From an uncultured Candidatus Saccharibacteria bacterium (GTDB lineage Bacteria; Patescibacteriota; Minisyncoccia; UBA6257), in contig CAZUBI010000001.1 in assembly GCA_964618625.1 (NCBI GenBank), positions 254,930 through 318,929 on the forward strand: a stretch of DNA of 64,000 bases, in the 5' to 3' direction. Position 1 is the stretch's first letter; every line of letters starts with the position of its first letter. Positions 5,366 through 56,307 of this stretch are shown here, piece by piece. Below the pieces are notes generated by a model that was not told where the DNA came from, made no database searches, and saw only the letters and a program-made list of their open reading frames with translations. Both the position numbers and the translations under genes were made by a program.

Positions 5366-6313
5366 TTAACATCTTTGCTTGGAAAAATCAACCAAAAACA
5401 TCTCTAAAGCAACTTGCCCATCAATATTTCCTCTCTTTATTTTTCTGTCATAATAAAGAAGGCGTTGAAATATGGACTTAAGCGTTTCCAAGGGAATAAT
5501 TTTTGCCAAAGGATGTAATTTTTGAAAAACATAAGGGTGCATTGAAGGCGGTTTTGCTTGTAGACTTTTTATTATCAAAAGATTGCGAAATTGAAAAATA
5601 ATCATTTTTAAAATATATAAAGGATGTATTCCCTGATTCATTAATGTCTCTAAAAACCAAAAGGCTTTTTTCATATTACCTTCAACCAAATTATCCAAAA
5701 AAGAAAAAATATTACTGTTTAAAGGTAAAAATAAATTTTCTTCTATTAACTCTTTGCTGATCAAGCCCTTTTTTATCAAAGCTAATTTTTCTAAAGAGTA
5801 GTAAATTGAACCTGTGTCAGAAGGAAAACTTACTAATATTAACTGGCGACCTTCAGAAGTTAATTTTAAACCCATTTTTTGCTCTTCTTCTATTATCCAA
5901 CTCTCTAATCCTTTTTTCTTTAATAATGAAAATTCTTTTACTCCTTTAGCTTTTTGTTCCAACCATTTCCGTAAGGAACTACTACGAACAGTATTATCCT
6001 CATAAAATATAACCATTATATCTTTAGCTTCGTCTATTTTTCTGTTCTTTAAAACAGCTAACAATTCTTTTCGAAATTCAATATTGGTATTTTTAAACAA
6101 ATTCTTTATTGCCACTAATTTACTGCCAGAAAATAAAGTATTGCTTTTTAATATGTCCTCTAATGCGGAAATATCAAATGAAGCAGAAAGTTTGTCTGAA
6201 AAATCACACGAAAAAAACGGGGTGTTTTTATTTTTATCATAATAAAAATCCCTTACTTCAAAAAAATATTTATGCGAACGAAAATTATCTTCCCCAAAAA
6301 TAAAATACAACAT
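5366..6313 (-). CDS. holA: DNA polymerase III delta subunit
   Basis: 315 aa; N-terminal LYFIFGEDNF and C-terminal YDRKIKRG...ALEMFL pattern; located next to rpsT. Confidence 0.6.
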   Translation of the reverse strand: MLYFIFGEDNFRSHKYFFEVRDFYYDKNKNTPFFSCDFSDKLSASFDISALEDILKSNTLFSGSKLVAIKNLFKNTNIEFRKELLAVLKNRKIDEAKDIMVIFYEDNTVRSSSLRKWLEQKAKGVKEFSLLKKKGLESWIIEEEQKMGLKLTSEGRQLILVSFPSDTGSIYYSLEKLALIKKGLISKELIEENLFLPLNSNIFSFLDNLVEGNMKKAFWFLETLMNQGIHPLYILKMIIFQFRNLLIIKSLQAKPPSMHPYVFQKLHPLAKIIPLETLKSIFQRLLYYDRKIKRGNIDGQVALEMFLVDFSKQRC

Positions 6314-6315
6314 AA

Positions 6316-7632: not shown

Positions 7633-7642
7633 ATATACAAAA

Positions 7643-10234
7643 TTATTTCATTTCCCCCCATTTATCTCCAATTCTTATATCTGCTTTTAAAGGCACTTTT
7701 AATTTAACCGCGTTTTCCATTATATTTTTAAAAAGTGGAGCTACTTCCTTTATTATCTCAGATTTTGCCTCCAGTATCAATTCATCATGAATCTGAATTA
7801 AAGTTTTTATATCATCTTCTATATGCTTGTTCTTAATAAGTTCTTGAATCTTTATCATTGCTATTTTAATAATATCTGCAGCTAATCCCTGAATAGGCAT
7901 ATTAAGGGCAATCCTTTCTTGTCCACGAGCTATGCGCCCAAAACCGCCTAACAATGGAAGAAACCTTTTTCTGCCGAAAATCGTCTCTGCATAACCCAAT
8001 TTTTTGGCATTTTCTAAAGAAAAATCAAGATAATTTTTAAGGCCTGAAAAATTAGAAAAATATTTTTCCCTAAAGCTCTTGGCTTCATCCAAAGAAATAC
8101 CTGCTTCCTGAGCAAATGTTTTATTGCCCATTCCGTAAATAATCCCAAAATTCAAAATCTTTGCCTTTTGTCTCATAGAAGGAGTAACTTGTTCATCAGA
8201 AATATTATGAATATAAGCAGCTGTGATTTTATGAATATCTTTACCTTGATTAAACGCCTCAATCATTCTAATATCCCCAGAAAGATGGGCTGCCAATCTT
8301 AATTCTATTTGGGAATAGTCTAATGAAACTAAAGAAAAGAATTCTTCAGAAATAAAAGCTTTCCTAATTTGTGTCCCCCAATCGCCTTTTTGGGGAATGT
8401 TTTGTAAATTAGGTTTTTCTGATGATAAGCGCCCTGTAGCTGTTCCTGTTTGTTTCCAAATTGTATGAATCCTGTTTGTTTTTGGATTAATAAACGAGGG
8501 AAGCGTATCAAGAAAAGAATTTTTTAATTTTTTTATTCCACGATATTTAATAATTAAAGGAATAATTCGATGGCTGCTTCTAATCTTTAATAACTCATTG
8601 GCATTAGTAGAAATTTTCTTGGTAGTGGTCTTTTTTAAATCTGATGAGGAAATTTTTAAGTCTTCAAATAAAATCTCGGACAACTGCTTTGGAGAACTGA
8701 TATTAAATTCTTTACCGGATAATTTATAGATTTTTTTTTCTAAAGTATTTATTTCTTTTTCCGCCTGTTTGGTTAATTTTTCCAACCAATTTTTATCTAT
8801 TAAAATACCATGTTTTTCCATTGAAGAAATCACGGAAATCAGAGGTTTTTCTTCTGTCTCCCAAACATTTTCTAATCCCAATGCTGTTATTTTATTTTTA
8901 ATAATTTCCCATAATGGAATCAACTTAGACAGAGAGCCTGCAAAAGAATCATCAATTTCCTGCCCGAGAAAAAATTTCGCAATAGAAGAAAATTCATAAT
9001 TTTTTCTTTCTGAATCTAATAGCCATACTAATATTTTTATATCTTCAAATAAACAACCAGAAAACTCTTCAATTTCCTCTAAAATAATCTTGGCATCATA
9101 ACTTATTAAATTCTTTTGAGACCAGTCTAATTGTTCCTTAAAAAAATCAACAAATTGGTGATTTGGAATATAGAACAAAGTATTATCTATAAAACTAAAT
9201 CCAATCCCATTAATTTCTCTCTGCCCAAATTTTTCACCTTTAAAATCTAAAAGTAATCCGATTGTTTGTTCCTGATTAATTTTTTGTTTCAATTTTTTTA
9301 TGTCTAAAGAGGTATTAATCATATTCAAAGAAATCTTTTCTGCAGGAGAAATATTTTCTTCAATATCAAATATCTTTGAAATTAAACTTCTAAAACCCAA
9401 TTCGCTTAACAAAGAAACTAATTTATCTTTTGGAGGAGGATTAAGTTTGGCTTTCTCTAGATCAAATTTTATTTTTATGTCCTTCTGAATTGTTACCAAA
9501 TGACGGCTAAAATAAGCCTGATCTTCATAATTCTTTAATTTTTCCAAAATCCTCGGGGAAACTTTAATTTTTTCTCCATCTTTTATCTTTTTATAAAGAT
9601 TATCCAATGTCCCAAATTCTTTTATTAATGTAGTTGCTGTTTTCTCGCCTATTGAAGGCACTCCTGGAACATTGTCTGAAGGATCGCCTCTTAACGCCTT
9701 CCAATCTATTAATTGTTCCGGTTTTAACTCAAATCTCTCAAAAACTTTTTCTTTATCATAAGTTACTTGATCTTGAATGCCGCGACGGAGCGTATAAACA
9801 AACACTTTGTCACTAATCAATTGCAGTGTATCCAAATCTCCTGTAACAATAAAAGATTGAACGTTTTTATTCTTCAATTTCTCAGTTATAGTTCCAATAA
9901 TATCATCTGCTTCATAACCTTCTTCCTCCAAAATCGGAATATTAAACGCTTGTAAAAGATTTTTTACTATTTGAATCTGTTCATAAAAATTATCCGGCAT
10001 TTTTACCCTCTGAGCTTTATATTCTTTATATTCTTTATGGCGGAAAGTCGGAGCTGCCATATCAAAAGTCGCCACAATATAATCTGGCTTTAAATCATTA
10101 ATCATCTTCAAAAAGAACAGCATAAATCCATAAACGCCATTAACTAAAACACCCTTTGGTGAAGTTAAGGGCGGAAGAGCGTGATAAGAACGATGTATTA
10201 AAGCATAAGAATCAATAACAACTAACTTTTTCAT
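7643..10234 (-). CDS. polA: DNA polymerase I
   Basis: 863 aa; 5'-3' exonuclease N-terminus; polymerase motifs QIELRLAAHLSGD, NFGIIYGM, QIHDELILE. Confidence 0.92.
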   Translation of the reverse strand: MKKLVVIDSYALIHRSYHALPPLTSPKGVLVNGVYGFMLFFLKMINDLKPDYIVATFDMAAPTFRHKEYKEYKAQRVKMPDNFYEQIQIVKNLLQAFNIPILEEEGYEADDIIGTITEKLKNKNVQSFIVTGDLDTLQLISDKVFVYTLRRGIQDQVTYDKEKVFERFELKPEQLIDWKALRGDPSDNVPGVPSIGEKTATTLIKEFGTLDNLYKKIKDGEKIKVSPRILEKLKNYEDQAYFSRHLVTIQKDIKIKFDLEKAKLNPPPKDKLVSLLSELGFRSLISKIFDIEENISPAEKISLNMINTSLDIKKLKQKINQEQTIGLLLDFKGEKFGQREINGIGFSFIDNTLFYIPNHQFVDFFKEQLDWSQKNLISYDAKIILEEIEEFSGCLFEDIKILVWLLDSERKNYEFSSIAKFFLGQEIDDSFAGSLSKLIPLWEIIKNKITALGLENVWETEEKPLISVISSMEKHGILIDKNWLEKLTKQAEKEINTLEKKIYKLSGKEFNISSPKQLSEILFEDLKISSSDLKKTTTKKISTNANELLKIRSSHRIIPLIIKYRGIKKLKNSFLDTLPSFINPKTNRIHTIWKQTGTATGRLSSEKPNLQNIPQKGDWGTQIRKAFISEEFFSLVSLDYSQIELRLAAHLSGDIRMIEAFNQGKDIHKITAAYIHNISDEQVTPSMRQKAKILNFGIIYGMGNKTFAQEAGISLDEAKSFREKYFSNFSGLKNYLDFSLENAKKLGYAETIFGRKRFLPLLGGFGRIARGQERIALNMPIQGLAADIIKIAMIKIQELIKNKHIEDDIKTLIQIHDELILEAKSEIIKEVAPLFKNIMENAVKLKVPLKADIRIGDKWGEMK

Positions 10235-10828: not shown

Positions 10829-13723
10829 ATGAAAGACTTCGCCAAAAAAAGGGAGGAAAAAATTAAAGCTCTTTGGCAAGAATCAAAAGAAAGAGAAGCG
10901 CAAAGGCTGGCTGAAAAACACAATTTTCTTTATGTTGACTTAAGAAAAGCGCCAATTGAAACAAGCGCTCTTTCTATAATCCCAGAAGAAGAAGCAAGAA
11001 AAACTAATATTATTGCTTTCCAAAAAATAGGAAATCAAATTAAATTAGCTGTTTTAGACCCATTTAACGCTGAAACAATAAGAACAATTGAAAAAATCAA
11101 AAAAGAAAGATATAAAGTTGCCGTTTTTGTTGTTACTGAGGAAAGCCTTAATTGGGCATGGAAAAATTATGCTTTTGTCCATGAGCACCAAAAAGAATTA
11201 TCAAATTTTATAGAAATAACTGACACTAAGTCAATTGAATTTTCCGATCTTCATCAAGAACTTTTACCCCTTCCCATAGAAGAAGTCACTTCATTAGTCT
11301 CGCTTATTTTAAAATCAGCTGTTGAAATAGACGCCTCTGACATTCATATTGAACCGCAGGAAGATTACGCTCTTGTTCGTTTTCGTGTGGACGGTGTCTT
11401 ATATGATGTTTCTGAAATAGAAAAAAAGAAACACCGCGGCATTAATCAAAGATTAAAGCTTCTGTCTGGTTTAAAATTAAATATTGAAAATATTTCCCAA
11501 AATGGCAGATTTACTATCCAAAATAATAAAAGTTTTATTGATGTCCGCGCTTCCAGCTTACCAGGTCCTCATGGAGAATTTTTAGTATTCAGGCTCTTAA
11601 ACCCCAAACGAGCCGCTTTTGGTTTAAAAGATTTAGGTATTGACCAAAAAAGTATAGATGTTTTTAATCATTCTTTATCAGCACCAAATGGAATGATTTT
11701 AATCACAGGACCTACAGGTTCAGGAAAAACAACTACTTTATACGCTTTTTTAAAAAAGAAGATTTCCCCAGGAATAAAAATTATCACAATTGAAGACCCA
11801 ATTGAATATCGGCTTGTTGGTGTAAACCAAACTCAGACATCAAAAAAATATGGTTTTGCTAATGGATTAAAATCCATTCTCCGACAAGATCCTGATGTCC
11901 TTATGATTGGCGAAATGAGAGATGAGGAAACAGTAAAAACCGCTATACAGGCTTCTTTAACCGGACATTTGGTCTTTTCTACACTCCATACAAATGAAGC
12001 CAGCGGCACTATTGCCAGACTGGTTGAATTAGGCGCTGACGTCCAAATGCTTCCAAATGCGCTTAAATTAGTTGTGGCGCAAAGATTAATTCGACGCCTT
12101 TGTCCTGATTGTAAAGAAAAATACCAACCAACTCCTGAAATGAAAGAAAGATTAATTGAGGCTTTTAGCATTCTCTCTCCAAAAAGTGGAGTAAAAATAC
12201 CGAAAAATATTCCATGTCTTTATAAATCAAAAGGCTGCGCAAAATGCCATTGGCTGGGATATAAAAGCCAGATTGGAATTTTTGAATACTTTAATATAAG
12301 TCCAAAAATTATTAAAACAATCAAATCCGACGCTGACCAAAATGAAATAAGATCGAAAGCCATTGATGAAGGAATGGTGCCTCTTTTTCATGACGGTCTA
12401 TTGAAAACTATTGAAGGCATTACTTCTTTGGAAGAAGTTATGAGAGTGGCAGGTGATATTTCCTATATCCAGGAATTATATAAAGAATTATTTTCTCAGG
12501 TTTTGACTCGAGGCGTAAAAGTAAGCAGCAAAGAAGAAAAGAAAATAGAAGAATTGCTTCAAAAGAATAAATCAATTTCCCCATTACTAAAAGATAAATC
12601 TTCTGAAAGGCAAATTGCCATTATTTTAGCTACTGCATTAAAATCACGAGCCACAGATGTTCACTTTGAACCAGAAGAAAAAACCAGTGAAATTAGGGAA
12701 AGAATTGACGGAGTGCTCCATAAATTAGTTTCTTTTGATATCAACGAGCATCCTAAATTAATTAATGAATTAAAAGCCCTCAGCGGTTTAAAAACAGAGG
12801 AAACGCAAACAATTCAAGAAGGAAGATTCCGGCTTATTCTTCCTGATGAATCTTTTGACCTCAGGCTTTCAATAATTCCAGGCGGATATGGGGAAAGCGC
12901 CTCCTTAAGAATCTTGGGCGGAGAAGAATCTTTATTAAATTTAGAAAGCTTGGGATTTTTAAAAGAACAGGAAGAAGAAATAGAAAAAGTATTAGAAAAA
13001 AAAGTCGGATTAATTTTAGCTGCCGGGCCTACTTCTTCGGGAAAAACCACAACTCTATTTACAATACTTAAAAAACTTGCCAAGCCAGATGTAAAAGTGA
13101 TTACTGTTGAAGACCCTATTGAATATCGTTTACCTGGAATTATGCAAACTCAAGTTAATGAGGAAAAAGGATATACTTTTTCCAAAGTCCTTCGAAGTTT
13201 GCTTCGCCAAAACCCTAACATTTTCCTAATTGGAGAAATTAGGGACAAAGAAACAGCTAAATTAGTCTGGCAGGCGTCTACAACAGGGCATTTAGTTCTG
13301 TCCACTATTCATACAAATGACGCTTTAGGCGTTTTATCTCGTCTACAGAGTTTAGAAATACCTTCAAAAGAATTGGTGCCTGCTATTAACACTATTGTTG
13401 CGCAACGATTAGTCCGTTGCCTTTGCCCTCATTGTAAAAAAGAAATAAAAATTCCATCAGAAATGTCCAAATTTATCAAACCATCCTTAAAATATTTCCC
13501 AAAATACAAAAAACCGATAAAAATTTACCAAGCTCAAAGTTGCGCCAAATGTAGTTTTACTGGATATAAAGGCCAATCAGGAATATTTGAAATACTTATA
13601 CCGCCTTCAAAAACAAAAGATCTTACAAAAGTAAAATTTTCAAAATTAATTAACAGCGCTGTTATTAAAGTTTTACAGGGAATTACCTCATGGGAGGAAA
13701 TAAAAAGAGTGCTTGGAGTATAA
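10829..13723 (+). CDS. type II/IV secretion (GspE/PilB-family) ATPase with two tandem ATPase cores
   Basis: 964 aa; T2SSE_N-like N-terminus. Two full cores, each with Walker A (GPTGSGKTTTLYAFL / GPTSSGKTTTLFTIL), Asp box, His box (FSTLHTNEA / LSTIHTNDA) and tetracysteine motif (CPDC..CAKC / CPHC..CAKC). Confidence 0.85.
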   Translation: MKDFAKKREEKIKALWQESKEREAQRLAEKHNFLYVDLRKAPIETSALSIIPEEEARKTNIIAFQKIGNQIKLAVLDPFNAETIRTIEKIKKERYKVAVFVVTEESLNWAWKNYAFVHEHQKELSNFIEITDTKSIEFSDLHQELLPLPIEEVTSLVSLILKSAVEIDASDIHIEPQEDYALVRFRVDGVLYDVSEIEKKKHRGINQRLKLLSGLKLNIENISQNGRFTIQNNKSFIDVRASSLPGPHGEFLVFRLLNPKRAAFGLKDLGIDQKSIDVFNHSLSAPNGMILITGPTGSGKTTTLYAFLKKKISPGIKIITIEDPIEYRLVGVNQTQTSKKYGFANGLKSILRQDPDVLMIGEMRDEETVKTAIQASLTGHLVFSTLHTNEASGTIARLVELGADVQMLPNALKLVVAQRLIRRLCPDCKEKYQPTPEMKERLIEAFSILSPKSGVKIPKNIPCLYKSKGCAKCHWLGYKSQIGIFEYFNISPKIIKTIKSDADQNEIRSKAIDEGMVPLFHDGLLKTIEGITSLEEVMRVAGDISYIQELYKELFSQVLTRGVKVSSKEEKKIEELLQKNKSISPLLKDKSSERQIAIILATALKSRATDVHFEPEEKTSEIRERIDGVLHKLVSFDINEHPKLINELKALSGLKTEETQTIQEGRFRLILPDESFDLRLSIIPGGYGESASLRILGGEESLLNLESLGFLKEQEEEIEKVLEKKVGLILAAGPTSSGKTTTLFTILKKLAKPDVKVITVEDPIEYRLPGIMQTQVNEEKGYTFSKVLRSLLRQNPNIFLIGEIRDKETAKLVWQASTTGHLVLSTIHTNDALGVLSRLQSLEIPSKELVPAINTIVAQRLVRCLCPHCKKEIKIPSEMSKFIKPSLKYFPKYKKPIKIYQAQSCAKCSFTGYKGQSGIFEILIPPSKTKDLTKVKFSKLINSAVIKVLQGITSWEEIKRVLGV

Positions 13724-13728
13724 AAAAA

Positions 13729-13877
13729 GGCCCATTAATCTGCAGGCAAATATCCTTCGAAACGAAGACTAAAGATCAACCCGAGGTATACCTCAGACAT
13801 ATAAATATATCCAAGATACCCATCTGCAGAGAACCCCTGACAAGCGTTTGCTTGCTTGCCTACAGATTAATAGACCC
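13729..13877 (-). ncRNA. candidate structured ncRNA (class unknown) in a convergent intergenic region
   Basis: 18-bp terminal helix ggcccattaatctgcagg / cctacagattaatagaccc. Its 3 non-WC positions are G-U only on the minus strand. Internal hairpins cttcgAAAcgaag, gaggTATAcctc, caagcGTTTgcttg. GC-richer than flanks. Confidence 0.4.
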
Positions 13878-13924
13878 TTTATTTTCAATTTGCAATACTA
13901 TTATACTATAGTCCATTAGCTTTG

Positions 13925-16063
13925 TCAACCCCTCACCTGCTTATCCACTTCTAAACTAATTTTCGTGGTATTAATAATTTCCTCCAATGGCATTGGGCTC
14001 CTTCTTTGATGCAAGCAAGAAGCTAAACTTTTTAACTCTTCAAAAAGCCCTTTATTTTGTTGACGCATTTTCATATCAGCTTTCACTCCATATGTTCTTA
14101 ACTTTTTATAATCATCCAGAATAAATACTCTGCCCTCAGAATATAACTCCATATATTCTTTACCAGCTCCGCTATCTCCCTGTGTTGTATAAACTAAATT
14201 AGCTAAAGAGCCGTCTTTAAATTTAATAGTGGAAACAAAATTATCAGTAGTAAGATAAAATGTGTCTTTTGGGGTTATTGCGCAAGCATCAATTTTTTCA
14301 ATTCCAGATTCAGCTAAATAGCAAAAAACATTAAACATATGGCAAGCATTGCCTAAAACTCTTCCTCCGCCTTCGCTGGTATTCACCCAATGGCTTGGCG
14401 CGAGATAAGAATCATTAACTCTATAATTAATTATTATCGGGCTGCGGCGATCCCTAATAGTTTCTTTTATTTTTTGAATGAACGGAGAAAAACGTCGATT
14501 AAATCCAACCGCGACAATTGGGGAATAATCAAAATTTTGTGTTTTTAATATATCCAAAATCTCTTTTAATTCTTCTTTGGTCAAGCATAATGGTTTTTCT
14601 ACAAAAATATTCTTTCCCGCTTTAAGAGTATCAATCACCATTTGAGCATGAAGATTATGCCTTGTACTAATGATAATAAGATTTATTTTGGGATCATTGA
14701 GTAATATTTTATAATCGGTTGTAGCAATACTCGCGTTATAGCGGCTGGCAAAATACTTGGCTTTTACCTGATCATGGGTACAAATTCCGCGAATTCTGTA
14801 AAATTCTCTTAATTTCATTAAATTAGGCAAATGCACGGTCTGGGCAAAACTTCCCACTCCAATAATTCCTAATTCAATTTTTCCTTCAATTTTTTGTGGA
14901 GTGGATAATTCAACAAACTGTTGCGAATCTTTTTCTTTTAAAATAGAGCCTGGATAAGAAAGCAAAACTGCTAATGGTTTTTTTTTGGAATTTAATAATT
15001 TATATGCCAAATCTGCCTGTTTTAAAGAATATTTTCCTTCAATCAAAGAACTAAAATCAATTTTTTTGTTTTTTAATAATTGCAGATAAGCCTGCATATT
15101 GCGATTTTCTGTCCATCTAACATAAGCATAAGGATAATCAATTCCTTTGTTTTCATAATCAGAATCTCCTCTGCCAGGGCCATAAGAAGTAGATATGCGC
15201 AATTCAATTTCCTTTTGATACCAAGGCAACCTATTAATTTTCAAACCAATATCCCCTACGACAACGACTTTCCCCTTTTTTCTTGTTGTTAATAACGCCT
15301 GATTAATAATTTCATCGTCTGAGGGATTAGCAGCAGTAATAATAGTCGCGTCTGCTCCTTGTGAATTAGTTAAATAATTAATTTTATTTAAAAGATTTTT
15401 AGTAGTAGGAGAAAAAATATTTGTTAATCCATTTTCTTTGGCTTTTTTTATTCTTTCTTTGGAAAGCTCAATACCAATCACCTTTATCCCGCTTGCCAAA
15501 AGAATCTGCGCAGTTAATTGGCCTATTAATCCTAACCCAACAACTACAGCACTTTCTCCTACGCGCAAATCAGCCTGCCTGACTCCTTGAAGAGCAATTG
15601 CGCCAACTGTGGCAGAACAAGCATCTTCAAAAGAAACTCCATTAGGAACTTTTACTGTTAAATTCCTTGGAACAGCTATAAATTCAGCATGGGAGGCAAT
15701 ATTTGCTCCTGCGCAAGCAACAATATCCCCTCTTTTAATATCAATTATATCCTTTCCGACTTTCATAACACGGCCGCAACAACTATATCCAGGAGTTACT
15801 CCCGCTTGAAGCATACCAGTTACTATTTTATAAGCATTGGAAAACCCCTGCTCTTTCACAAGCTTAATGCCTTTAGCTAATTTAGTTGGATGTTTTAAAA
15901 CCTTTAAAGGCAAAGGTTGCCCAGAAAAATTTAAACTTGATAATTCTGTGCCCGAAGAAATTAAAGAAAATAGATTTTCCACTAAAATCTGGCCTGCTCC
16001 GCAAGCCGGCGTTGGAACCTCTTCTACAACAACTTTTCCTTGTTTAAAAACTAATTGTTTCAT
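13925..16063 (-). CDS. bi-domain oxidoreductase (zinc-ADH/MDR N-terminal + Gfo/Idh/MocA C-terminal)
   Basis: 712 aa. N-terminal GroES-like/MDR with Rossmann GLGLIGQ. C-terminal second Rossmann GIIGVGSFAQTVHLPNL with Gfo/Idh/MocA-like fold. Confidence 0.7.
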   Translation of the reverse strand: MKQLVFKQGKVVVEEVPTPACGAGQILVENLFSLISSGTELSSLNFSGQPLPLKVLKHPTKLAKGIKLVKEQGFSNAYKIVTGMLQAGVTPGYSCCGRVMKVGKDIIDIKRGDIVACAGANIASHAEFIAVPRNLTVKVPNGVSFEDACSATVGAIALQGVRQADLRVGESAVVVGLGLIGQLTAQILLASGIKVIGIELSKERIKKAKENGLTNIFSPTTKNLLNKINYLTNSQGADATIITAANPSDDEIINQALLTTRKKGKVVVVGDIGLKINRLPWYQKEIELRISTSYGPGRGDSDYENKGIDYPYAYVRWTENRNMQAYLQLLKNKKIDFSSLIEGKYSLKQADLAYKLLNSKKKPLAVLLSYPGSILKEKDSQQFVELSTPQKIEGKIELGIIGVGSFAQTVHLPNLMKLREFYRIRGICTHDQVKAKYFASRYNASIATTDYKILLNDPKINLIIISTRHNLHAQMVIDTLKAGKNIFVEKPLCLTKEELKEILDILKTQNFDYSPIVAVGFNRRFSPFIQKIKETIRDRRSPIIINYRVNDSYLAPSHWVNTSEGGGRVLGNACHMFNVFCYLAESGIEKIDACAITPKDTFYLTTDNFVSTIKFKDGSLANLVYTTQGDSGAGKEYMELYSEGRVFILDDYKKLRTYGVKADMKMRQQNKGLFEELKSLASCLHQRRSPMPLEEIINTTKISLEVDKQVRG

Positions 16064-16066
16064 AAT

Positions 16067-18367
16067 CTAATCGGGAATTTGATCCCATTGTTCATCCTCA
16101 ACTAATTTAATAAAAGCTTCTACTGTTTCTTTCGCTCCTGGCTTTAGTTCTAAAACTTTGTTGGCATATTCAATAGCTTTTTCTTTATTCTGTATTTTAG
16201 CATAAGCAGCAGCTAAGCCAGTATATAAAGAAACGTCTTTGGGATCTATTTGAATTGCTTGTAAATAAAGTTTTGTTATAGCTTTATAATCTTTTTCTTT
16301 TATTAAAAGACTTATTACACCTAAAATCTGATTTTTAGCTTTAAAAGAAAAATTAAGCTCAGCTGCTTTTATTAAATTTTCATCGCGTTTTTCAAAATCG
16401 CTTAATTCATTATAAGCTAAACCTAAAATATAATAAGAAGTTGAGAGTTTAGGATTAATTTCAATAACTTTTTCTGCCTCTGTTATGGCTCTTTCTGTTT
16501 CTTTATTGAGTAGAAAGAATTTAGCAGCGAATAAGTAAGACTGCGGAAAATGCGGAAAACGAGAGAGTATTTCTTCGGTTGATTTTTCAGCCTGCTCAAG
16601 TCCATTTTCACCCCATTGTAAAAAGATAGTCTCTAAATCTGCAGCAGCCATAGCTAAATTAAACCGCCACGGCCTTTCTTGAACTGCTTCCCTAGCTTGT
16701 ATAACTAATATGCCAATCATCTTTTTTCTATATTCTTCATTAATATTTGAACTGTAAAGTGAATACATTTTTTTAATGCCTATAATTATATCGCCTTTCA
16801 AAAAAGCAGGTTTATTAATTACACCTCTTAATTCCTCATATGCTTTTTCATTTTCTCCTTGTTTAACAAAATAACCTACATTAAAAATTCCTTTGCTTAC
16901 TAAATAAGGTCTTATAACCCATTGTGTCGTGCTAAAAATAACTAAACAAACAACGGCAATAACTAATAACCCTTTCCCCATTCTTAAAGAATAGTTTTTG
17001 GAAGAACCTTTTTCTTTTGTCACTGGGGGTCCCGATTTATCGGGACGTAGTAATCCTATTTCTGAAAGCGATGAGATAAAAGCCAATAACAAAAAGAACA
17101 TTAAATAACTTTCGTGAAAATCAAAAATAAAAACATTCTGGATAAAATACCCTATCAAACCACCCGCTAAAGCCAATGACGGTAAAAACCATTCTTTCTT
17201 TTTTCTTAAACGATTCAAAAAATATAAAACTATCCCAAAAACAGAAAGGTAAGACAAAAACCCAAAAATGCCAGTAGTGGCTAAAACCTCCATTGGTTTG
17301 TTATGGGCTCTGTCAAAATAAAAATCCCCTGGCAAATATTTTAATACTTCTGGATTAAAATTTTTTACATAAGCAGCTTCATAATTTTCTGGGCCCCAGC
17401 CAAAGAATGGTTTTTGTAAAAAACTTTTCCAGGCTGTCCCAGCAGAAAAAAGACGAGAGAGAGCTGTTGGATCTGTTAGGGAAATAGAAGAAAACCTACC
17501 TAGAATTTTATTATTTTTTACAAAATCAGTATTTTTTGCGCCAAAAGTAAAAACAGATAAAACTAATATGCTAATTAAAAAAACAATGGCTATTTTCTTC
17601 AAAGAACTAGGAAGGTTGGACTCCTTTTGAATATCTGACTTTAAGAAAATAATGCCCAAAGCAATTAATATAATGCTTACTAAGTAACCCATCATTGAAC
17701 CTCTTGTCAAAGTAGCAAAAATGAGAAAACTTTGCCCGAGAAAAACAAGCAGCCACCAATTAAATAATCTTTTATCAAATATATATTGACGAGAATAAAA
17801 ATATAGAGCTAAAAAGGCGTTAAAAAGCAAATACACAGCGAAAAAAGAAGGGTTACCAGTATAGCCAGCCAAGCGACCACCAGTTAACTGGGCGGTAATT
17901 TTTCCTATACCAGAATAAGCTAAAATAGCCACTATTGAATAAAGAATACCTATTCCTACCTGGATTTTGAGAATTTTCTCTATTTCTAAATATTTAAAAG
18001 TCGTGGCAATAATTAAAAAGAAAAGCATAAAGTGCCAAATTCCAAATACTCCTTCCATTCTTTCATTTCCTGAGAATAAACTATAATAAAAATCTATTCC
18101 AAAAAGAGCGGAAATAAATATTATAATACCAAAAATAAGAACGGCTTTAGTTAATGGAGTTAATGAAATTGATGAAGTCGGACTTCCAAGGGAAGTTCGA
18201 CTTTTAACTAGCCAAAATACCCAAACCACTAACATTAAACCTACTATTATTCGAAAAGCTATGGCTTTGGCAGTAATAAAAGGAAAATAAGTGCTAGTAT
18301 CAACCAAAAAAGGCGTAAATAAAGCCGCAATTGTAAGATAAAATAGCGTTGTTTTTAATTTATTCAT
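16067..18367 (-). CDS. O-antigen ligase / Wzy_C-family polytopic membrane protein with C-terminal TPR domain (possible O-oligosaccharyltransferase)
   Basis: 766 aa; ~12 TM helices plus a large periplasmic loop; C-terminal TPR repeats (LGLAYNEL..., AAAYAKIQNKEKAIEYANKVLEL). Confidence 0.6.
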   Translation of the reverse strand: MNKLKTTLFYLTIAALFTPFLVDTSTYFPFITAKAIAFRIIVGLMLVVWVFWLVKSRTSLGSPTSSISLTPLTKAVLIFGIIIFISALFGIDFYYSLFSGNERMEGVFGIWHFMLFFLIIATTFKYLEIEKILKIQVGIGILYSIVAILAYSGIGKITAQLTGGRLAGYTGNPSFFAVYLLFNAFLALYFYSRQYIFDKRLFNWWLLVFLGQSFLIFATLTRGSMMGYLVSIILIALGIIFLKSDIQKESNLPSSLKKIAIVFLISILVLSVFTFGAKNTDFVKNNKILGRFSSISLTDPTALSRLFSAGTAWKSFLQKPFFGWGPENYEAAYVKNFNPEVLKYLPGDFYFDRAHNKPMEVLATTGIFGFLSYLSVFGIVLYFLNRLRKKKEWFLPSLALAGGLIGYFIQNVFIFDFHESYLMFFLLLAFISSLSEIGLLRPDKSGPPVTKEKGSSKNYSLRMGKGLLVIAVVCLVIFSTTQWVIRPYLVSKGIFNVGYFVKQGENEKAYEELRGVINKPAFLKGDIIIGIKKMYSLYSSNINEEYRKKMIGILVIQAREAVQERPWRFNLAMAAADLETIFLQWGENGLEQAEKSTEEILSRFPHFPQSYLFAAKFFLLNKETERAITEAEKVIEINPKLSTSYYILGLAYNELSDFEKRDENLIKAAELNFSFKAKNQILGVISLLIKEKDYKAITKLYLQAIQIDPKDVSLYTGLAAAYAKIQNKEKAIEYANKVLELKPGAKETVEAFIKLVEDEQWDQIPD

Positions 18368-20025
18368 AATTTAGAATTTGCTGCCGCTCTTGTCAATGGT
18401 CCAAAATAACCAGTAGTAATAATGTTTTGTAATGCCTGATAGCGCTTAACTGCTGCCTGAGTCAAAGGTCCAAAATAACCTGTTATTAATCCTTCTGGAT
18501 AAATCTCAGGCCCTAAAGCTTTTAAATATTGCTGCAAACAACTCACTTGATTACTATTCATTCCATAATAAAGGTCTCCGTAAAAAGATGAGCATACTGA
18601 AGAATTCTGACCTGCTGATAAAGCAAGTAATTGCGCCTGAAGCTTAACTATCTCCTGTTGAAGCATAAGAATTTTGGCTTGCAATGCTTTTATTACTTCT
18701 GCTTCAGCTTGATCTGAATCTTCTGACACAGTCACATCCCATGAAAAATAATAGCGTTTATCAGAAAAAGTTGACGTAAGAAAAGGAATTGTAATTAAAG
18801 CAATGTTTTTATCTCCAAAATCTGAAACAAAAATTTCATCCATATTACTTGCCTCAAAATCAAAAAAACCAACTTTATTTTGCCCATTATCTTGAATAAT
18901 AATATATGGAACACGAGAAATTTGAGTATTCTCTGGTATTTCCCATTCCATTTTTATAATATCCTTTCCACCAATAATCTTCTGCCACTTTGCGCTCCAA
19001 GAATTTAAAGAATCTGTTACTGACAAAGAAGCTCTTCCTGTTGTTGGTAAATAATAAGTATAAGGAAAAATCGTAAGATTTTTCAAATAAGGATTTTTAT
19101 AACAATATTTTTGACTTTTGGAACAATCATTAATCACATTAGTAATCAACCAATCCATAAAAATATCTGAAAAATCTTCAGAAAATCCATTCTTCTTTAA
19201 AGCATAATTAATAGCAGCTATACCTGATTCAGAAGAATGCAAAGAATCAACTAAAATATCAATGCCATAATGATCGACTAAATAATGAGTTAATAAATTT
19301 ACTTTGGCATAATCGTAATTAGTATTATCCCAATCTAATAAAGAAATCTTTGTACTATTTGAAAATTGTCGAATTCTTCTCTGTAAATTACTATCATCCC
19401 AATCTTTTCCATAATCCAATAAAGTTTCAGTATATTCAGCTCTGCCTTCATTAAGCCAGACTTCTTCATCAGGATTTTGTTTAAGAGTTATCAAATGCAT
19501 AAATTCGTGAGCCAAATGATACCTTAAGCTGTCAGAAGATAATAATAGAATATTATCAGCGTTTAAATATATTATTTGTCCTTCATTAGAACGAGAATAA
19601 AGTTGAGATGAATAGTTGTCTGCTGTTTGTATATATCCGCCAACGTCTTTTTTCATCTTATGTAATACGACGATCGTTCTTGAGTCGTTATCTATACCAG
19701 GATTGTCTTCAAAGCCAAAAGTTTGAGTTAAAATTGGATAGATTTTATATTCAAACCTATTGGCTAAGCTATAAATCTTATTATTAATATCTCTTTTATT
19801 TCCAGATGAAAGTTCATTAAACCATTCTTGATCTGCGTAAAAATATAATCTATTTGTGATTTTTATAAGCTCAGTATCTATTTTCCAACGAGCCAATGGA
19901 TCATAATCATATTGAATATTAAAAGAACGCTCTTGCCCCATAGAAATCGCCTGAGCAAAAACTGGAATAAAAAGTATTATCCCTAAAAGAAAACAAAGAA
20001 TAAATTTTCGCTGATAAGAAAACAT
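18364..20025 (-). CDS. secreted gluzincin metallopeptidase with coiled-coil and C-terminal PG_binding_1 domain
   Basis: signal peptide; HEFMHLI...NEGRAEY (HExxH + NEG third ligand); C-terminal YFGPLTQAAVKRYQ peptidoglycan-binding repeats. Confidence 0.65.
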   Translation of the reverse strand: MFSYQRKFILCFLLGIILFIPVFAQAISMGQERSFNIQYDYDPLARWKIDTELIKITNRLYFYADQEWFNELSSGNKRDINNKIYSLANRFEYKIYPILTQTFGFEDNPGIDNDSRTIVVLHKMKKDVGGYIQTADNYSSQLYSRSNEGQIIYLNADNILLLSSDSLRYHLAHEFMHLITLKQNPDEEVWLNEGRAEYTETLLDYGKDWDDSNLQRRIRQFSNSTKISLLDWDNTNYDYAKVNLLTHYLVDHYGIDILVDSLHSSESGIAAINYALKKNGFSEDFSDIFMDWLITNVINDCSKSQKYCYKNPYLKNLTIFPYTYYLPTTGRASLSVTDSLNSWSAKWQKIIGGKDIIKMEWEIPENTQISRVPYIIIQDNGQNKVGFFDFEASNMDEIFVSDFGDKNIALITIPFLTSTFSDKRYYFSWDVTVSEDSDQAEAEVIKALQAKILMLQQEIVKLQAQLLALSAGQNSSVCSSFYGDLYYGMNSNQVSCLQQYLKALGPEIYPEGLITGYFGPLTQAAVKRYQALQNIITTGYFGPLTRAAANSKL

Positions 20026-20072
20026 TGATTATATATTAACAAAAAAAAAGCAAAAAACAAATAACAAGAAAA

Positions 20073-20100
20073 CAAAAACCGCCTTGAAAGGCGGTTTTTG
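20073..20100. terminator. bidirectional rho-independent terminator
   Basis: aaaaACCGCCTTgaaAAGGCGGTttttt. Confidence 0.7.
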
Positions 20101-20118
20101 CAACCTGCAAGGAATGGT

Positions 20119-22131
20119 TTACATAGCATTCAACAACAGTGACGATGTCTTAAAGTCACCTAAGTCAAACGTATAGAAGTTAGTGTTTGTACCAGTGCTA
20201 ATTGTACCCCAATTAATTGATTCCAAAGCTACATAGTGAGATCCAGTAGTACTAGCAGTTAGGACAACTTGAAGAGTAAATTGTCTTGTATCATTCTCTT
20301 CAACTTGGAACACTACACCAGAACTATCATCACTATCACTTGATGAAGACTCAAGAAGTTGAGAAGCAACTGTAGAAGTACCTGCAGATGACGTAATGTC
20401 AAAAACAACACCCTGTCCAGCAGCGTCAGAACCATTATCATCTTCAGTAGTATCTTCAATATACATATCATCACCAAATGCTAATACATTAAAGACAATA
20501 GTGTAAGTTCCCTGATCGTTTTCACTCGCTGCGTCAGCAGAAAAACTCTTTATCCTTTCGACACTAACCAAACTCACTGAAATACCATCATCATAGACAA
20601 CGTGCGCTTCACCAACAGCAGTACCAGACATATCTCCAGTACCCAAATCTTCACCGGTTTCATCTTCTGCGTCAATGGCAGCGCGTTCAGTACTAGAAAT
20701 TTGAGCAAGAAAAGTATCTCCTGCGTCAAGAACGTCTGCTATTGAATTAAAGTCTGCCTTAACAAGGCATGTGTATGTCTCGCCTGCCTCAAGAACAAGG
20801 TCAAGATTATCAAATATAACTGTCTCTGTACTGCTAGTTACGCCTACTGTTGTATTTTCTGATCCTACTTTTTCTCCATCCACATAGAGATAAAGCGCAG
20901 AAACGAGATCATCTGGACCATTTCCAGTGCTTTCAACTGAAACAACATTCACAGGAATATCATCAATAGTAATGTCTGAGCTACCTTCTACCTCCATTGT
21001 GAATGAAAGAATTGATACGTTATCTGTATCATCTGTTGCATGAACATCAATTACATGCGCTTCATTAATACTTTCATCATCAAGAGCAATCTTAAGCTCT
21101 ATATTAGCTGATGTAGCATATGTATCAAACGAAAAAGTTGTAGCACCAACTCCTGGATCCTCGGAAATAGTTGCTCCTTGAGCATCTAGATACCGAATAG
21201 ATGAATAGTCAACAGTCCAAGTATCACCAGCATCAGCAGAATCAAGATTGTTAATGCCAGAAATCTTTACATAAAGAATACCTGTAGCTTCTGCAAGAAT
21301 AATGTTATTACCACTAAGTGTAACTGTCCTGATCCAGGTGTTGTCATCATCAAAAGTATCGGCATCTACGCGAGCAACTTCATTACTACCAAGCCATACT
21401 GAGACTTCGTCTGCAAATTTGTCAAACTCTCTACCAGCTGTAGCTGTGCCTTGAGCAAAAGTAAGCTGGATAGCTGTGATTCTAAGATCTGAGCCCTCAT
21501 CAGCTTCTATTTCAAGACCAGCAACTACAACATCATTCTCAGCTTCACCGACTTCCTCATTAGAAAGTCCGCTGGAAAGTTCATAGGCTACAACTGATCC
21601 TGCTCCACCCGTAAGAGCTGCTACAGTAGTTGTAGTAGTTGTATCTACGGGAGCAACTGTAGTAGTTGTTGTAGGAACTACTGGAGTACAATACAAAGCA
21701 TTGAATTTAGCTCTGGTTGTAGAACCAGCATAACCAGTCCCTTTAGTGAATCCCCAAGAAGCTAAAACCTCAGAAGCATATTTCTCCTGAAACTTAATTA
21801 CTGCGGCTTTGGTCAATGCACCGAAATAAGAAGTTTCATATCCAGAAGCACCAGCCCCAGAAATAGCCACTTGAGTGGCTGAATCTTGGTTTAATCCTTG
21901 CTGGAGTATCTTTACTTCAGCGCTTGTCATTCCTGAGGAAAGATCGCCAGTAAGACAAAGCCCTGTAGTAGTAGTTGTCTGCCCAGATATTTGTGCTTGT
22001 AGCGAAGTAATCTGAGCTAACAAAGCTGTAATCTGAACTTGAAGATCTGCAATTGTATCTGCGCCTGCTGAGCCAACCATAGAAACGGCAAAAGCTACAG
22101 CAATAACAGAAGCAATAATTTTATTTTTCAT
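20119..22131 (-). CDS. large secreted Thr-rich surface protein with N-terminal coiled-coil + PG_binding_1 module
   Basis: 670 aa; signal peptide; LQAQ coiled-coil; YFGALTKAAVIKFQ; poly-Thr linkers (TTTTTVAPVDTTTTTTV); acidic beta-rich C-terminal region. Confidence 0.6.
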   Translation of the reverse strand: MKNKIIASVIAVAFAVSMVGSAGADTIADLQVQITALLAQITSLQAQISGQTTTTTGLCLTGDLSSGMTSAEVKILQQGLNQDSATQVAISGAGASGYETSYFGALTKAAVIKFQEKYASEVLASWGFTKGTGYAGSTTRAKFNALYCTPVVPTTTTTVAPVDTTTTTTVAALTGGAGSVVAYELSSGLSNEEVGEAENDVVVAGLEIEADEGSDLRITAIQLTFAQGTATAGREFDKFADEVSVWLGSNEVARVDADTFDDDNTWIRTVTLSGNNIILAEATGILYVKISGINNLDSADAGDTWTVDYSSIRYLDAQGATISEDPGVGATTFSFDTYATSANIELKIALDDESINEAHVIDVHATDDTDNVSILSFTMEVEGSSDITIDDIPVNVVSVESTGNGPDDLVSALYLYVDGEKVGSENTTVGVTSSTETVIFDNLDLVLEAGETYTCLVKADFNSIADVLDAGDTFLAQISSTERAAIDAEDETGEDLGTGDMSGTAVGEAHVVYDDGISVSLVSVERIKSFSADAASENDQGTYTIVFNVLAFGDDMYIEDTTEDDNGSDAAGQGVVFDITSSAGTSTVASQLLESSSSDSDDSSGVVFQVEENDTRQFTLQVVLTASTTGSHYVALESINWGTISTGTNTNFYTFDLGDFKTSSLLLNAM

Positions 22132-22297: not shown

Positions 22298-23188
22298 CTA
22301 ATTTTCCTCCAAAGAGTGGATTGACAATAATTTGTTAATACTTTCAATCTTATCTATCGCTGTCAAGCAATCTCCAGCTTTAAAAGCATTACTTGCTTCT
22401 AATAATAAATTCTTACATTTTATAATGTCACCTGGGGACCATCGATATAATTCATTCTGATTAGCAGTAAAATATTTCCCTAAATCTTCTAATTTATTTT
22501 GTAAATAACCAGGGCATTGATTAATTTCTTCAGTGGTTTCTATAATAAGAGCAAGAACCTGTGATTGGGAATTTTCTACACTTTTATTCAATTCTTCTCT
22601 TTCTTTTTCTTCTAAAGAAATCTTATCTGCAAGATTTTGTAAAGGCTTACTTCTTTCTTGAATGTCTTTTGAAATATTTAAAGCAACTTGTTTGTTATTT
22701 ATATTTTTAATTTCCTGAGAAACAATTTCTAAATCTTTTCCAATGTTTTTTGCAATAACACTTATCTCTTTCTCATAATTTTCAACTTTACTTAAATCTC
22801 CCATTCTTGCTTTTACAACTTCCAAACGAACAACAGGTTTTGTATTTTCAGAAGCAAGATAAATCTTAGCATTCTGGGTTAAAGTTTTTATTGGATATAA
22901 AATATTACCCGGTAAAGTTGTCTGGGCAAAAGCGAATGAAAAAACAAAGAAGAAAGCTAACAAGGAAGGAACTAATGTTTTCTGATATTTGGAAATAAAA
23001 GAAAAAACCGCCAGTTTAACTTTTGGTTTATTATATAAACCACTTTGCGGTTTGGTCTGTAAAATATTGGCTTTAAGCCAATTAGCCCAATCCTGATTGG
23101 ACTTTATTTGTTTTAAATCTTGTAATTTTTGAATAAGCTCTTTTTCTTGCATAATTTCTTCTACTACACAAGACGTAAAAAACAACAA
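22298..23188 (-). CDS. membrane-anchored protein downstream of the ECF sigma factor (putative anti-sigma factor)
   Basis: 296 aa, single TM (LLAFFFVFSFAFA); assigned by position after the sigma gene. Confidence 0.3.
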   Translation of the reverse strand: MLFFTSCVVEEIMQEKELIQKLQDLKQIKSNQDWANWLKANILQTKPQSGLYNKPKVKLAVFSFISKYQKTLVPSLLAFFFVFSFAFAQTTLPGNILYPIKTLTQNAKIYLASENTKPVVRLEVVKARMGDLSKVENYEKEISVIAKNIGKDLEIVSQEIKNINNKQVALNISKDIQERSKPLQNLADKISLEEKEREELNKSVENSQSQVLALIIETTEEINQCPGYLQNKLEDLGKYFTANQNELYRWSPGDIIKCKNLLLEASNAFKAGDCLTAIDKIESINKLLSIHSLEEN

Positions 23189-27089: not shown

Positions 27090-28073
27090 TTAATTGGTAG
27101 TTGTGGTAACTCCTGGCGGTGGTGTTTTTGGTAAACGCCCTTTAGGAATTTTTGGGGTTGGTATTGGCAATGCTTTCATAATATTTTCTATAGTGCTGGT
27201 GGCAAAACCTTGTTTTTCTAAAACCTGAACGCTTTGCTGTACCCTATTTTTCAATTTTTCTTTCAACTGCTCTGCTTTAGCCTGAACATGGTCTGAGTAA
27301 TCCCCTAAATTCGTTTGCTGAAGTTGTTCTTGTATACTATTCATTATTCGCAATTGTCGAAATTCTCCAGCTGGCGCAGATTTTAAAGGCTGTAGTTCCT
27401 GTAATTTATTTTCCAAACGATTCATAAACTCTTCCTGATTTTCAAATTTTAAACGAAGAAGGGGTAAGGTTTGATTAATGTTTTGACGAATTCTTTCAAC
27501 TTGAACAACAACTTCTGGGACTTTTTCTAAAATCCTATCTAAAACTTCTGAGTGACGAATCTCAGCTTCTGTGACTTTATCAAGAAGTTTGTCTATATTC
27601 GGATTTTCCGAAGTTTCTTTTAAGCTCTCCATCCTATCTCTTAATCTACTCATTGCGTTTGTATAATTATCAAACGCTTTTTCTAAAACTTCCTGCTTTG
27701 GAGCTTTTTGAGCTATTGCTTCTGCCTCAGCTAATTTTTCTGAAAGTATCTGCAATTGTACTTCACTCTTTTTTATTGGATCTCTAGTCCACCCTACTTT
27801 TAAACCTCTCCACCATTCTTTCAAAAAATAAAAAGGACTAGTAGGAAGTAACCCTACTCTTTTTAATCCTAAGGCTTTTGGAACAGAAAGTTCTTCTTCC
27901 TCTGGTAAAGTTGTTGTAGTTGTATCAACAATCGTAGTGGTCGTAGCATCTCCAACCGTAGTTGTTGTAGCATCAATAACAGTAGTTGTGGTTGTTTCTT
28001 CAGCAAATATTAAATTTACAGAAACTCCGCTAATTAAACCACAAAGAAATAAACCTAAAATTATTTTTTTCAT
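27090..28073 (-). CDS. secreted Thr-rich protein with DUF5667-like domain
   Basis: signal peptide; TTTT repeats; PTSPFYFLKEW motif also present in the 43966..45858 protein. Confidence 0.45.
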   Translation of the reverse strand: MKKIILGLFLCGLISGVSVNLIFAEETTTTTVIDATTTTVGDATTTTIVDTTTTTLPEEEELSVPKALGLKRVGLLPTSPFYFLKEWWRGLKVGWTRDPIKKSEVQLQILSEKLAEAEAIAQKAPKQEVLEKAFDNYTNAMSRLRDRMESLKETSENPNIDKLLDKVTEAEIRHSEVLDRILEKVPEVVVQVERIRQNINQTLPLLRLKFENQEEFMNRLENKLQELQPLKSAPAGEFRQLRIMNSIQEQLQQTNLGDYSDHVQAKAEQLKEKLKNRVQQSVQVLEKQGFATSTIENIMKALPIPTPKIPKGRLPKTPPPGVTTTTN

Positions 28074-55911: not shown

Positions 55912-56307
55912 CTACATTGGAAGTAATCCTGTGCATCTCCAGTTTATCTCTGCCATTTTTGTTTCTACATTAATTACACAAGCAGGATTACAACCTTCTT
56001 TTTCTATATCTAAATCTATCCACCAAGTCCCAGTAACTTCATTGCATATATAAGTATCTTTCAGCTTATCACCGCATTGGCCCTGAATAGCAATTTCTTT
56101 AGCTTCTGACAAACTAAGTTTTATATCAGTGCCTTTTTTCTGGCAAAATTCCTCAGAAGAAATTGTAGTTGTCGTAGTTAATCCAATTGTCGTTGTTGTA
56201 GCAGAAGGAAGATTTATTGTTATAATCCCTTGATTTATTAAATATCCTCCAACAAACAACAATCCTAGTATTATAAAGAAAATTGAAGCTGATCCTTTTT
56301 TATTCAT
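55912..56307 (-). CDS. hypothetical secreted Thr-rich / Cys-rich small protein
   Basis: signal peptide, TTTTIGLTTTTT linker, 6 Cys. Confidence 0.4.
   Translation of the reverse strand: MNKKGSASIFFIILGLLFVGGYLINQGIITINLPSATTTTIGLTTTTTISSEEFCQKKGTDIKLSLSEAKEIAIQGQCGDKLKDTYICNEVTGTWWIDLDIEKEGCNPACVINVETKMAEINWRCTGLLPM

Follow-up and report, generated by a model that had tools for sequence, protein, structure and literature searches.

The closest described counterparts of the enzyme studied here are two predicted O-oligosaccharyltransferases (O-OTases) of surface-layer (S-layer) proteins. WsfB of Paenibacillus alvei combines a Wzy_C domain with C-terminal tetratricopeptide repeats (TPR), and WsaB of Geobacillus stearothermophilus is encoded in the slg cluster, with the gene for the TPR protein WsaA just upstream; both clusters also hold genes for a surface-layer protein, for nucleotide-sugar metabolism and for glycosyltransferases (GTs) (PMC2943079). 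Dedicated O-OTases are usually encoded beside their substrate (PMC12645811). The gene of TfpW of Pseudomonas aeruginosa, a polytopic pilin arabinosyl-/oligosaccharyltransferase with a periplasmic C-terminal TPR domain, likewise adjoins that of its protein substrate, pilA. Here we describe a locus within a 64-kb stretch of DNA (contig CAZUBI010000001.1; the whole stretch is called the window) that encodes a polytopic Wzy_C protein with a TPR domain, referred to as Wzy_C-TPR, close to the gene for a secreted surface protein. It forms a conserved unit of cell-envelope genes in an uncultured lineage of Paceibacteria (Parcubacteria), ultra-small bacteria of the candidate phyla radiation (CPR), and we tentatively read Wzy_C-TPR as a dedicated protein O-OTase for this adjacent surface protein.

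By described architecture, Wzy_C-TPR is like WsfB and WsaB a polytopic Wzy_C enzyme with TPRs in, or beside, the same protein, and it likewise belongs to a bacterium free of lipopolysaccharide (LPS). Unlike the WsfB and WsaB clusters, the lineage of the window has no adjacent GT or nucleotide-sugar genes and only a facultative oxidoreductase gene. The Parcubacteria block also differs by including an extracytoplasmic function (ECF) sigma factor gene with a putative anti-sigma factor gene, as well as an M30-type peptidase gene, and its candidate acceptor is a protein anchored by a PG_binding_1 domain. A preliminary description of this DNA had proposed a module of four consecutive minus-strand genes for the oxidoreductase, Wzy_C-TPR, the peptidase and the surface protein. 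These four reading frames are exact (Table 1), and the last three genes are indeed kept together in relatives. The conserved unit nevertheless differs from the four-gene proposal, since it starts upstream at the sigma pair, a strong terminator splits off the surface-protein gene, and the oxidoreductase gene is optional: it lies 3' of the Wzy_C-TPR gene in 11 orthologous loci and is missing in at least six, about one-third.

Table 1. Features of the conserved envelope unit and of further poly-Thr proteins in the window
Feature	Position	Strand	Basis or remark
ECF-type sigma factor, 167 aa	23193..23696	-	Sigma70_r2 and Sigma70_r4_2 matches; first gene of the conserved unit
Single-pass membrane protein, putative anti-sigma factor, DUF5667-like ectodomain	22298..23188	-	Position and topology
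Secreted wall-binding surface protein, 670 aa, candidate glycan acceptor	20119..22131	-	Sequence and domains
Strong intrinsic terminator hairpin	20072..20101	-	13-bp stem followed by a T-run, directly 3' of the surface-protein gene
Secreted M30 (hyicolysin/lugdulysin)-like zinc endopeptidase, 553 aa	18364..20025	-	
WaaL-fold (Wzy_C) glycan transferase with TPR, 766 aa, candidate O-OTase	16067..18367	-	
Bi-domain MDR + Gfo/Idh/MocA oxidoreductase, 712 aa, facultative accessory gene	13925..16063	-	Domains
Secreted DUF5667 protein with five poly-Thr runs, possible further acceptor	27090..28073	-	
Membrane-anchored Cys-containing protein, 131 aa, T4 and T5 runs, possible further acceptor	55912..56307	-	

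The evidence for the enzyme itself comes from its domains, an alignment and a structural model. Residues 208-374 of Wzy_C-TPR matched Wzy_C with 68.1 bits against a gathering cutoff of 31.7 (hmmscan, domains reported at E<=0.01), and C-terminal TPRs were found as well. Across 60 aligned homologues with identities as low as 25%, residues R222, R291, R305, G323, G325, D352, R353 and H355 were invariant. The AlphaFold model was confident (predicted local distance difference test, pLDDT, 88.9; predicted template modelling score, pTM, 0.85) and has the 12 transmembrane (TM) helices of the WaaL fold, with a large outside loop (277-356) between TM9 and TM10 that bears invariant residues. Past these 12 helices follow a disordered Lys/Arg-rich cytoplasmic linker (440-455), a 13th TM helix and a TPR superhelix (~503-757). 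The positive-inside rule is obeyed, with 20 Lys and Arg among 88 residues of the predicted inside loops vs 4 among 62 in the short outside loops. The loop charges together with the 13th helix therefore place the TPR domain on the catalytic, outer side, and it is predicted to be extracytoplasmic, on the same side as the catalytic loop.

A Foldseek search with the model recovered the TPR part only, and phmmer with the membrane domain alone gave no match in the PDB. A profile built from 16 membrane-domain sequences was required, which matched WaaL (7TPG) at E = 1.2e-10 and aligned the motifs TRG, xRL and HN of R222, R305 and H355. These motifs correspond to the Arg/Arg/His residues that are important in Escherichia coli WaaL (R215/R288/H338) and conserved in PglL (R224/R298/H349; PMC3643930). 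The Wzy_C-family protein with a TPR tail named in the preliminary description accordingly has a true WaaL fold and retains the catalytic Arg/Arg/His. We regard it as a transferase that presumably depends on a glycan linked to undecaprenyl pyrophosphate (Und-PP). Identity to the WaaL of Cupriavidus metallidurans (7TPG/7TPJ) is only 15%, and the 13th TM helix and the TPR domain (~260 residues, outside the membrane) are extra in Wzy_C-TPR. The enzyme shares the Wzy_C core and the same Arg/Arg/His (PMC3643930) with PglL and PglS, general and pilin-type O-OTases of Gram-negative bacteria which carry out en bloc O-glycosylation of exported proteins; unlike these, it belongs to an organism without outer membrane or periplasm. 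TfpW resembles it as a polytopic glycosyltransferase whose large TPR domain, at the C terminus, faces outward, but TfpW is ArnT/Emb-like (GT-C) with a pilin substrate, whereas the window enzyme is WaaL-like. In a scan of species-representative genomes at least 402 relatives of Wzy_C-TPR were found, every one in metagenome-assembled genomes (MAGs) of Patescibacteria type, and the enzyme belongs to its own Patescibacteria clade. Homologues of the other studied genes, too, came almost exclusively from Paceibacterota/Minisyncoccia (Parcubacteria) MAGs.

The surface protein fits the earlier picture of a surface protein with poly-Thr linkers. It has a signal peptide, a coiled coil, a weak and Cys-flanked PG_binding_1-like domain, Thr runs at positions 52 (T5), 154 (T5) and 164 (T6), and an acidic Thr/Ser-rich body after the linkers; no solved or Pfam relative was found outside the PG-binding module. 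Its orthologues retain the N-terminal signal peptide, the coiled coil and the PG-binding module, and Thr runs stand at the same linker position in the window protein and in three of the four orthologues examined (L002, L003 and L005, not L001). The gene evolves fast: the match to the L001 orthologue has E = 6e-13, whereas the Wzy_C proteins of the same loci are 77% identical. In the L001 orthologue (6137-8197), and also in L007, the poly-Thr linker is swapped for three copies of the Cys-containing repeat YPEGCTSAVGFSPTTGLSCAG.

Runs of at least four Thr were counted in the 53 predicted proteins of the window and compared with 1000 shuffles. We observed 10 runs vs 0.21 expected (~47-fold), and no shuffle gave more than 3. 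The runs are encoded by mixed ACN codons, which indicates selection on the protein level, and they are confined to three proteins, all exported. Besides the surface protein these are the DUF5667 protein, in which four of the five runs directly follow the signal peptide and whose runs are kept in the L001 orthologue, and the small membrane-anchored protein, with its T4 and T5 runs just outside the anchor. Of the four other secreted proteins to which TTTT-rich linkers had been ascribed, these two stand; a third was the module's own surface protein, and the fourth (42324-43412) contains not even three Thr in a row.

To follow the gene order, loci were divided into an orthologous group (L001-L005 and L007-L027, Wzy_C-TPR identity 37-84%) and a group of distant paralogues (25-30% identity to the window enzyme). 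The peptidase gene lies immediately upstream of the Wzy_C-TPR gene in 22 of 22 orthologous loci that extend far enough. The surface-protein gene is found upstream of the peptidase gene, two genes from Wzy_C-TPR, at every orthologous locus with DNA there, preceded by the genes for the ECF sigma factor and a single-pass DUF5667-like protein. Surface protein, peptidase and Wzy_C-TPR thus stay together down to 37% identity, as the preliminary description would have it, whereas its oxidoreductase does not stay with them consistently. Locus L024 carries a second Wzy_C-TPR copy upstream of the peptidase gene.

Neither the peptidase nor the oxidoreductase is linked to Wzy_C-TPR in the group at 25-30% identity. 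At seven of these distant loci, which belong to different lineages (L031, L032, L044, L078, L079, L081 and L085; 25-28% identity) the gene immediately upstream of Wzy_C-TPR encodes a giant Thr/Ser-rich secreted protein of 1100-1240 amino acids. It is followed by one to four tandem Wzy_C-TPR genes (four in L032, 6027-14863; two each in L031, L044, L079 and L081), and the flanks are otherwise unrelated. Sigma or sigma/putative anti-sigma homologues lie upstream in L031, L032, L078 and L081. The giant proteins are Thr/Ser/Ala-rich and mutually homologous (E 1e-17 to 1e-208) and gave no Pfam domain, and those of L044 and L085 match the surface protein of the window in its N-terminal, wall-binding module. 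The giant protein of L044 has a motif like the L001 repeat, VGCTSTTGFSPVTGLPCS, between its T8 and T6 runs. With a crude classifier for giant Thr/Ser-rich proteins, 5 of 175 genes within two genes of Wzy_C-TPR were scored positive vs 0 of 463 farther away (p = 0.0015). These proteins are candidates for a Parcubacteria surface-layer protein. In L078, L044 and L032 a nucleoside-diphosphate-sugar epimerase/dehydratase gene and several GT4 genes lie downstream of Wzy_C-TPR, a layout with surface protein, epimerase and GT4 genes like that of the WsfB and WsaB clusters. Other paralogues adjoin genes for Wzx, UDP-sugar dehydrogenase, GT1/GT2, DegT and NeuB (L006 and L028 have Wzx/GT loci, at 25-30% identity), and further ones adjoin MurB/SecA, PG-binding proteins, subtilases or a PMT_2 enzyme, with MurB making up 7 of 93 downstream neighbours. 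Overall, the family is connected with the metabolism of lipid-linked glycans at the cell surface and, in one sub-pattern that recurs, with large secreted proteins rich in Thr and Ser.

From this context we infer the following route for the glycan donor, the acceptor and the use of poly-Thr as acceptor site. A glycan would be built on Und-PP by enzymes encoded elsewhere in the genome and then flipped outward. The invariant Arg residues of the WaaL-like enzyme would bind the pyrophosphate, and the glycan would be transferred en bloc, with participation of the invariant His, to an acceptor held by the TPR domain. Transfer would go to Ser/Thr residues in the neighbouring surface protein and perhaps also in the other exported poly-Thr proteins. 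A Parcubacterium genome is reported to lack lpxC and kdsA, and Parcubacteria are reported to be without genes for lipid A and LPS (PMC5220378). Because these bacteria have no LPS and the gene family recurs beside large secreted proteins rich in Thr and Ser, the likeliest acceptor is Ser/Thr of the surface protein. A broader version, which we consider doubtful, would be a Parcubacteria-wide, sigma/anti-sigma-controlled system of WaaL-fold/TPR O-OTases, often in tandem, that serves giant Pfam-less Thr/Ser-rich proteins forming a CPR surface layer.

Several observations weigh against an O-OTase dedicated to the surface protein. The PglL-subfamily signatures PglL_A (PF15864) and Wzy_C_2 (PF11846) were not found in the enzyme by hmmscan at E<=0.01, so that the subfamily comparison suggested in the preliminary description was negative for PglL and the enzyme differs in this from PglL and PglS. 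Since the O-OTases TfpO and TfpM also lack both (PMC12645811), their absence rules out the PglL subfamily only and not O-OTase activity as such. The only solved relative is WaaL, an LPS ligase deposited as 'polysaccharide polymerase/ligase'. No glycosyltransferase, flippase or initiating phosphoglycosyltransferase gene was found in the 64-kb window. The orthologous neighbourhood is collinear over more than 20 kb, from the threonyl-/leucyl-tRNA synthetase genes (ThrRS/LeuRS) to those for PolA and a histidine kinase, in relatives at 47-77% identity, and adjacency within the orthologous group is therefore weak evidence. Since the giant proteins are homologous to each other, their adjacency may also be one inherited arrangement instead of a repeated independent association. 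A polysaccharide role would suit those paralogues that adjoin MurB/SecA or Wzx/GT genes and have no surface protein in their vicinity. The strong terminator parts the surface-protein gene from the enzyme gene, and the replacement of the poly-Thr linker in L001 and L007 indicates that poly-Thr is not essential. Finally, glycosylation of Thr-rich linkers could instead be due to PMT_2-type enzymes, which these lineages possess.

Some of these points are shared by the strongest alternative, namely that Wzy_C-TPR is a Wzy-like polymerase or a ligase for a non-protein envelope glycoconjugate, which we consider unlikely but worth serious attention. Its product would be a secondary cell-wall polymer or capsule-like glycan made from Und-PP-linked units, or it would join glycan to a lipid anchor or to peptidoglycan; a scaffold function towards the wall would fall to the TPR domain, and the PG-binding proteins would be wall-associated neighbours, not substrates. 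Pfam Wzy_C spans both polymerases and ligases, in line with the name under which the closest structure was deposited, and PG_binding_1 is present on both flanking proteins. The Wzx flippase and GT4 arrays beside distant paralogues (L006, L028), the MurB neighbours of others and the polysaccharide loci from other phyla in which the oxidoreductase occurs together with Wzx, Wzz and plain Wzy_C point in the same direction. Such a role is less easily reconciled with the invariance of the WaaL-type Arg/Arg/His, which includes the His that is essential in WaaL and PglL, or with the extracytoplasmic TPRs known from the protein-directed transferases WsfB and TfpW. Up to four tandem paralogues after one giant secreted protein (L032) would be hard to explain by it. 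Moreover, no Wzx or GT gene lies near the genes of the orthologous group, and neither the window gene nor its orthologues sit in a Wzx/Wzy-type locus.

It is improbable, in our view, that there is no module at all and that the gene order is simply inherited in a small streamlined genome, with the proteins acting independently and poly-Thr serving as a flexible spacer. The long collinearity described above would be expected in that case, as would the terminator that sets the surface-protein gene apart, the coming and going of the oxidoreductase and the generic nature of the M30 endopeptidase. But the block from sigma factor to Wzy_C-TPR outlasts a change of its surroundings: it survives in L005 and L025, where the downstream flank has switched to the isoleucyl-tRNA synthetase gene (IleRS), and it survives a transposase insertion. 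The inserted Y1-transposase gene (L005, 7506-8222; also in L025) lies between the surface-protein and peptidase genes and leaves the block otherwise intact. In addition, the peptidase and Wzy_C-TPR genes overlap by 4 nt both in the window and in L003, and at 25-28% identity Wzy_C-TPR is again found paired with a giant secreted protein, between otherwise unrelated flanks.

Least probable of the three is that the enzyme is an O-OTase whose acceptors are type IV pilins, as for PilO, TfpO and TfpW, and not the adjacent surface protein. O-OTases specific for pilins are well established, a tandem-domain PilB-type ATPase gene adjoins the cluster in the orthologous group, and in L060 a PilB homologue directly follows Wzy_C-TPR on the same strand. 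However, unlike in the PilO/TfpO type, no pilin gene stands beside or near the window enzyme; the only pilus gene is that of the PilB-like ATPase, which is convergent and separated from the cluster by a conserved small-RNA gene. We rate this possibility low because no prepilin leader motif was found in any frame of the 64-kb window and because L005 and L025 lose the PilB adjacency while they retain that of peptidase and surface protein. A strict WaaL O-antigen ligase also fits poorly: the 64-kb window holds no LPS core/O-antigen locus and no LPS genes at all, the neighbours of the enzyme gene being unrelated to LPS in contrast to those of waaL in an LPS core cluster, and a true WaaL role is implausible because the Parcubacteria are reported without lipid A genes, and hence without the acceptor of WaaL (lpxC and kdsA missing from one genome; PMC5220378).

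For the peptidase, the sigma pair and the oxidoreductase we infer roles in the unit from position only. The peptidase was correctly recognised as a peptidoglycan-binding gluzincin, with an HExxH...E site and a PG_binding_1 match of 49 bits. Its only peptidase-family Pfam match was Peptidase_MA_2, below threshold (24.8 vs 32.4 bits); a weak HExxH match to NCBIfam MXAN_6640 was also obtained, and hmmscan gave no Pfam Peptidase_M30 match at E<=0.01. The protein has the HExxH + Glu zinc site and the fold of MEROPS family M30 and counts as a general endopeptidase of this type, for which no connection with glycosylation is known. It consists of a beta-sandwich domain, a C-terminal coiled coil and PG_binding_1. 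Unlike the secreted staphylococcal M30 metalloproteases lugdulysin and hyicolysin, it carries this coiled coil and wall anchor in addition, and its gene has a fixed place directly before a WaaL-like gene.

The bi-domain architecture of the oxidoreductase was borne out as a medium-chain dehydrogenase/reductase (MDR) part (ADH_zinc_N, 1.7e-16) joined to a Gfo/Idh/MocA part (GFO_IDH_MocA, 1.5e-26). Homologues named 'bi-domain-containing oxidoreductase' occur at 46-48% identity in Chloroflexi, WOR-3, Nitrospinota and archaea. In three of three non-CPR genomes examined the gene lies in a polysaccharide locus, with genes for UDP-sugar dehydrogenase, UDP-N-acetylglucosamine 2-epimerase, Wzx, a heparinase II/III-like protein, GT2/GT4 and plain Wzy_C or Wzz. 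This association supports the sugar-tailoring type proposed earlier, and the enzyme probably acts on a sugar or nucleotide-sugar. The putative anti-sigma gene starts 4 nt downstream of the sigma gene, and its product has a TM helix near residue 75. Its orthologues gave weak DUF5667 matches, and phmmer found homologues after the sigma gene in L031 and L081. The anti-sigma role is putative and is suggested by position and topology.

A hairpin equivalent to the terminator at 20101-20072 was present in 11 of 11 orthologous loci. This conservation suggests that the surface-protein gene is a separate transcription unit and probably forms its own, highly expressed transcript. G+C of 20001-22000, within which most of this gene lies, is 0.40 vs 0.31 in the flanks, consistent with the Ala/Gly/Thr-rich composition, with expression-related codon use, or with both. 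Between the stop codon and the terminator (20102-20118, minus strand) lies a near-invariant 16-mer, CCTTTCCTTGCAGGTT (ACCATTCCTTGCAGGTT in the window), which was found at the equivalent position in L002, L003, L005, L009, L012, L014, L017 and L026 and may be an RNA processing or binding element.

On the other side of the unit, the PilB-type ATPase gene (10829-13723, plus strand) encodes 964 amino acids with two T2SSE domains in one polypeptide, and its position is kept in relatives. The small-RNA gene (13730-13928, minus strand; ~155-160 nt) lies between the oxidoreductase stop codon and this convergent gene. Its promoter is a perfect TTGACA-17-TATAAT, a U-run stands at its end, and the predicted RNA is structured, with a 24-bp closing stem that shows compensatory changes and encloses internal hairpins. 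It was present in 10 of 10 related loci, with or without the oxidoreductase gene, and gave no Rfam 15 match at E<=1.

The window has a G+C content of ~32% and typical CPR features, namely an intein-containing RtcB with archease, DUF5667 proteins, the double-domain PilB ATPase and numerous housekeeping genes on a single strand. The RtcB RNA ligase gene (1606-4557, minus strand; 983 amino acids in all) is split by an intein of ~500 amino acids and adjoins the archease gene (4563-4976, minus strand). A 250-amino-acid release-factor-like protein is encoded at 53468-54220 (minus strand), with only the C-terminal half of the PCRF domain and the RF-1 domain. There is no space upstream for the absent N-terminal part, and a full-length release-factor gene lies at 61129-62175; the protein may be either a truncated RF2 or a rescue factor of the PrfH/ArfB type.

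What the CPR cell envelope consists of and how it is assembled is still described as unclear (PMC5220378), and the surface matters in these bacteria because they live attached to or dependent on other cells. Our literature search for O-antigen ligases or glycosylation in CPR/Patescibacteria found nothing specific. A Wzy_C/TPR transferase beside a surface protein is a known kind of arrangement, which as far as the searchable literature shows is new for this phylum. What is gained is a widespread Patescibacteria family of WaaL-fold/TPR proteins, candidate partner surface proteins and a layout that resembles the S-layer glycosylation clusters of Gram-positive bacteria. If Wzy_C-TPR is not an O-OTase, it still marks an unknown wall glycopolymer pathway in LPS-free bacteria. 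If it is, defined proteins and Thr-rich peptides would become targets for glycoproteomics on enrichments and for heterologous O-OTase assays, possibly with new enzymes for glycoengineering. Should the Parcubacteria-wide system hold, the CPR would have its first defined machinery for protein O-glycosylation, and with it a molecular handle on the CPR envelope and on host attachment.

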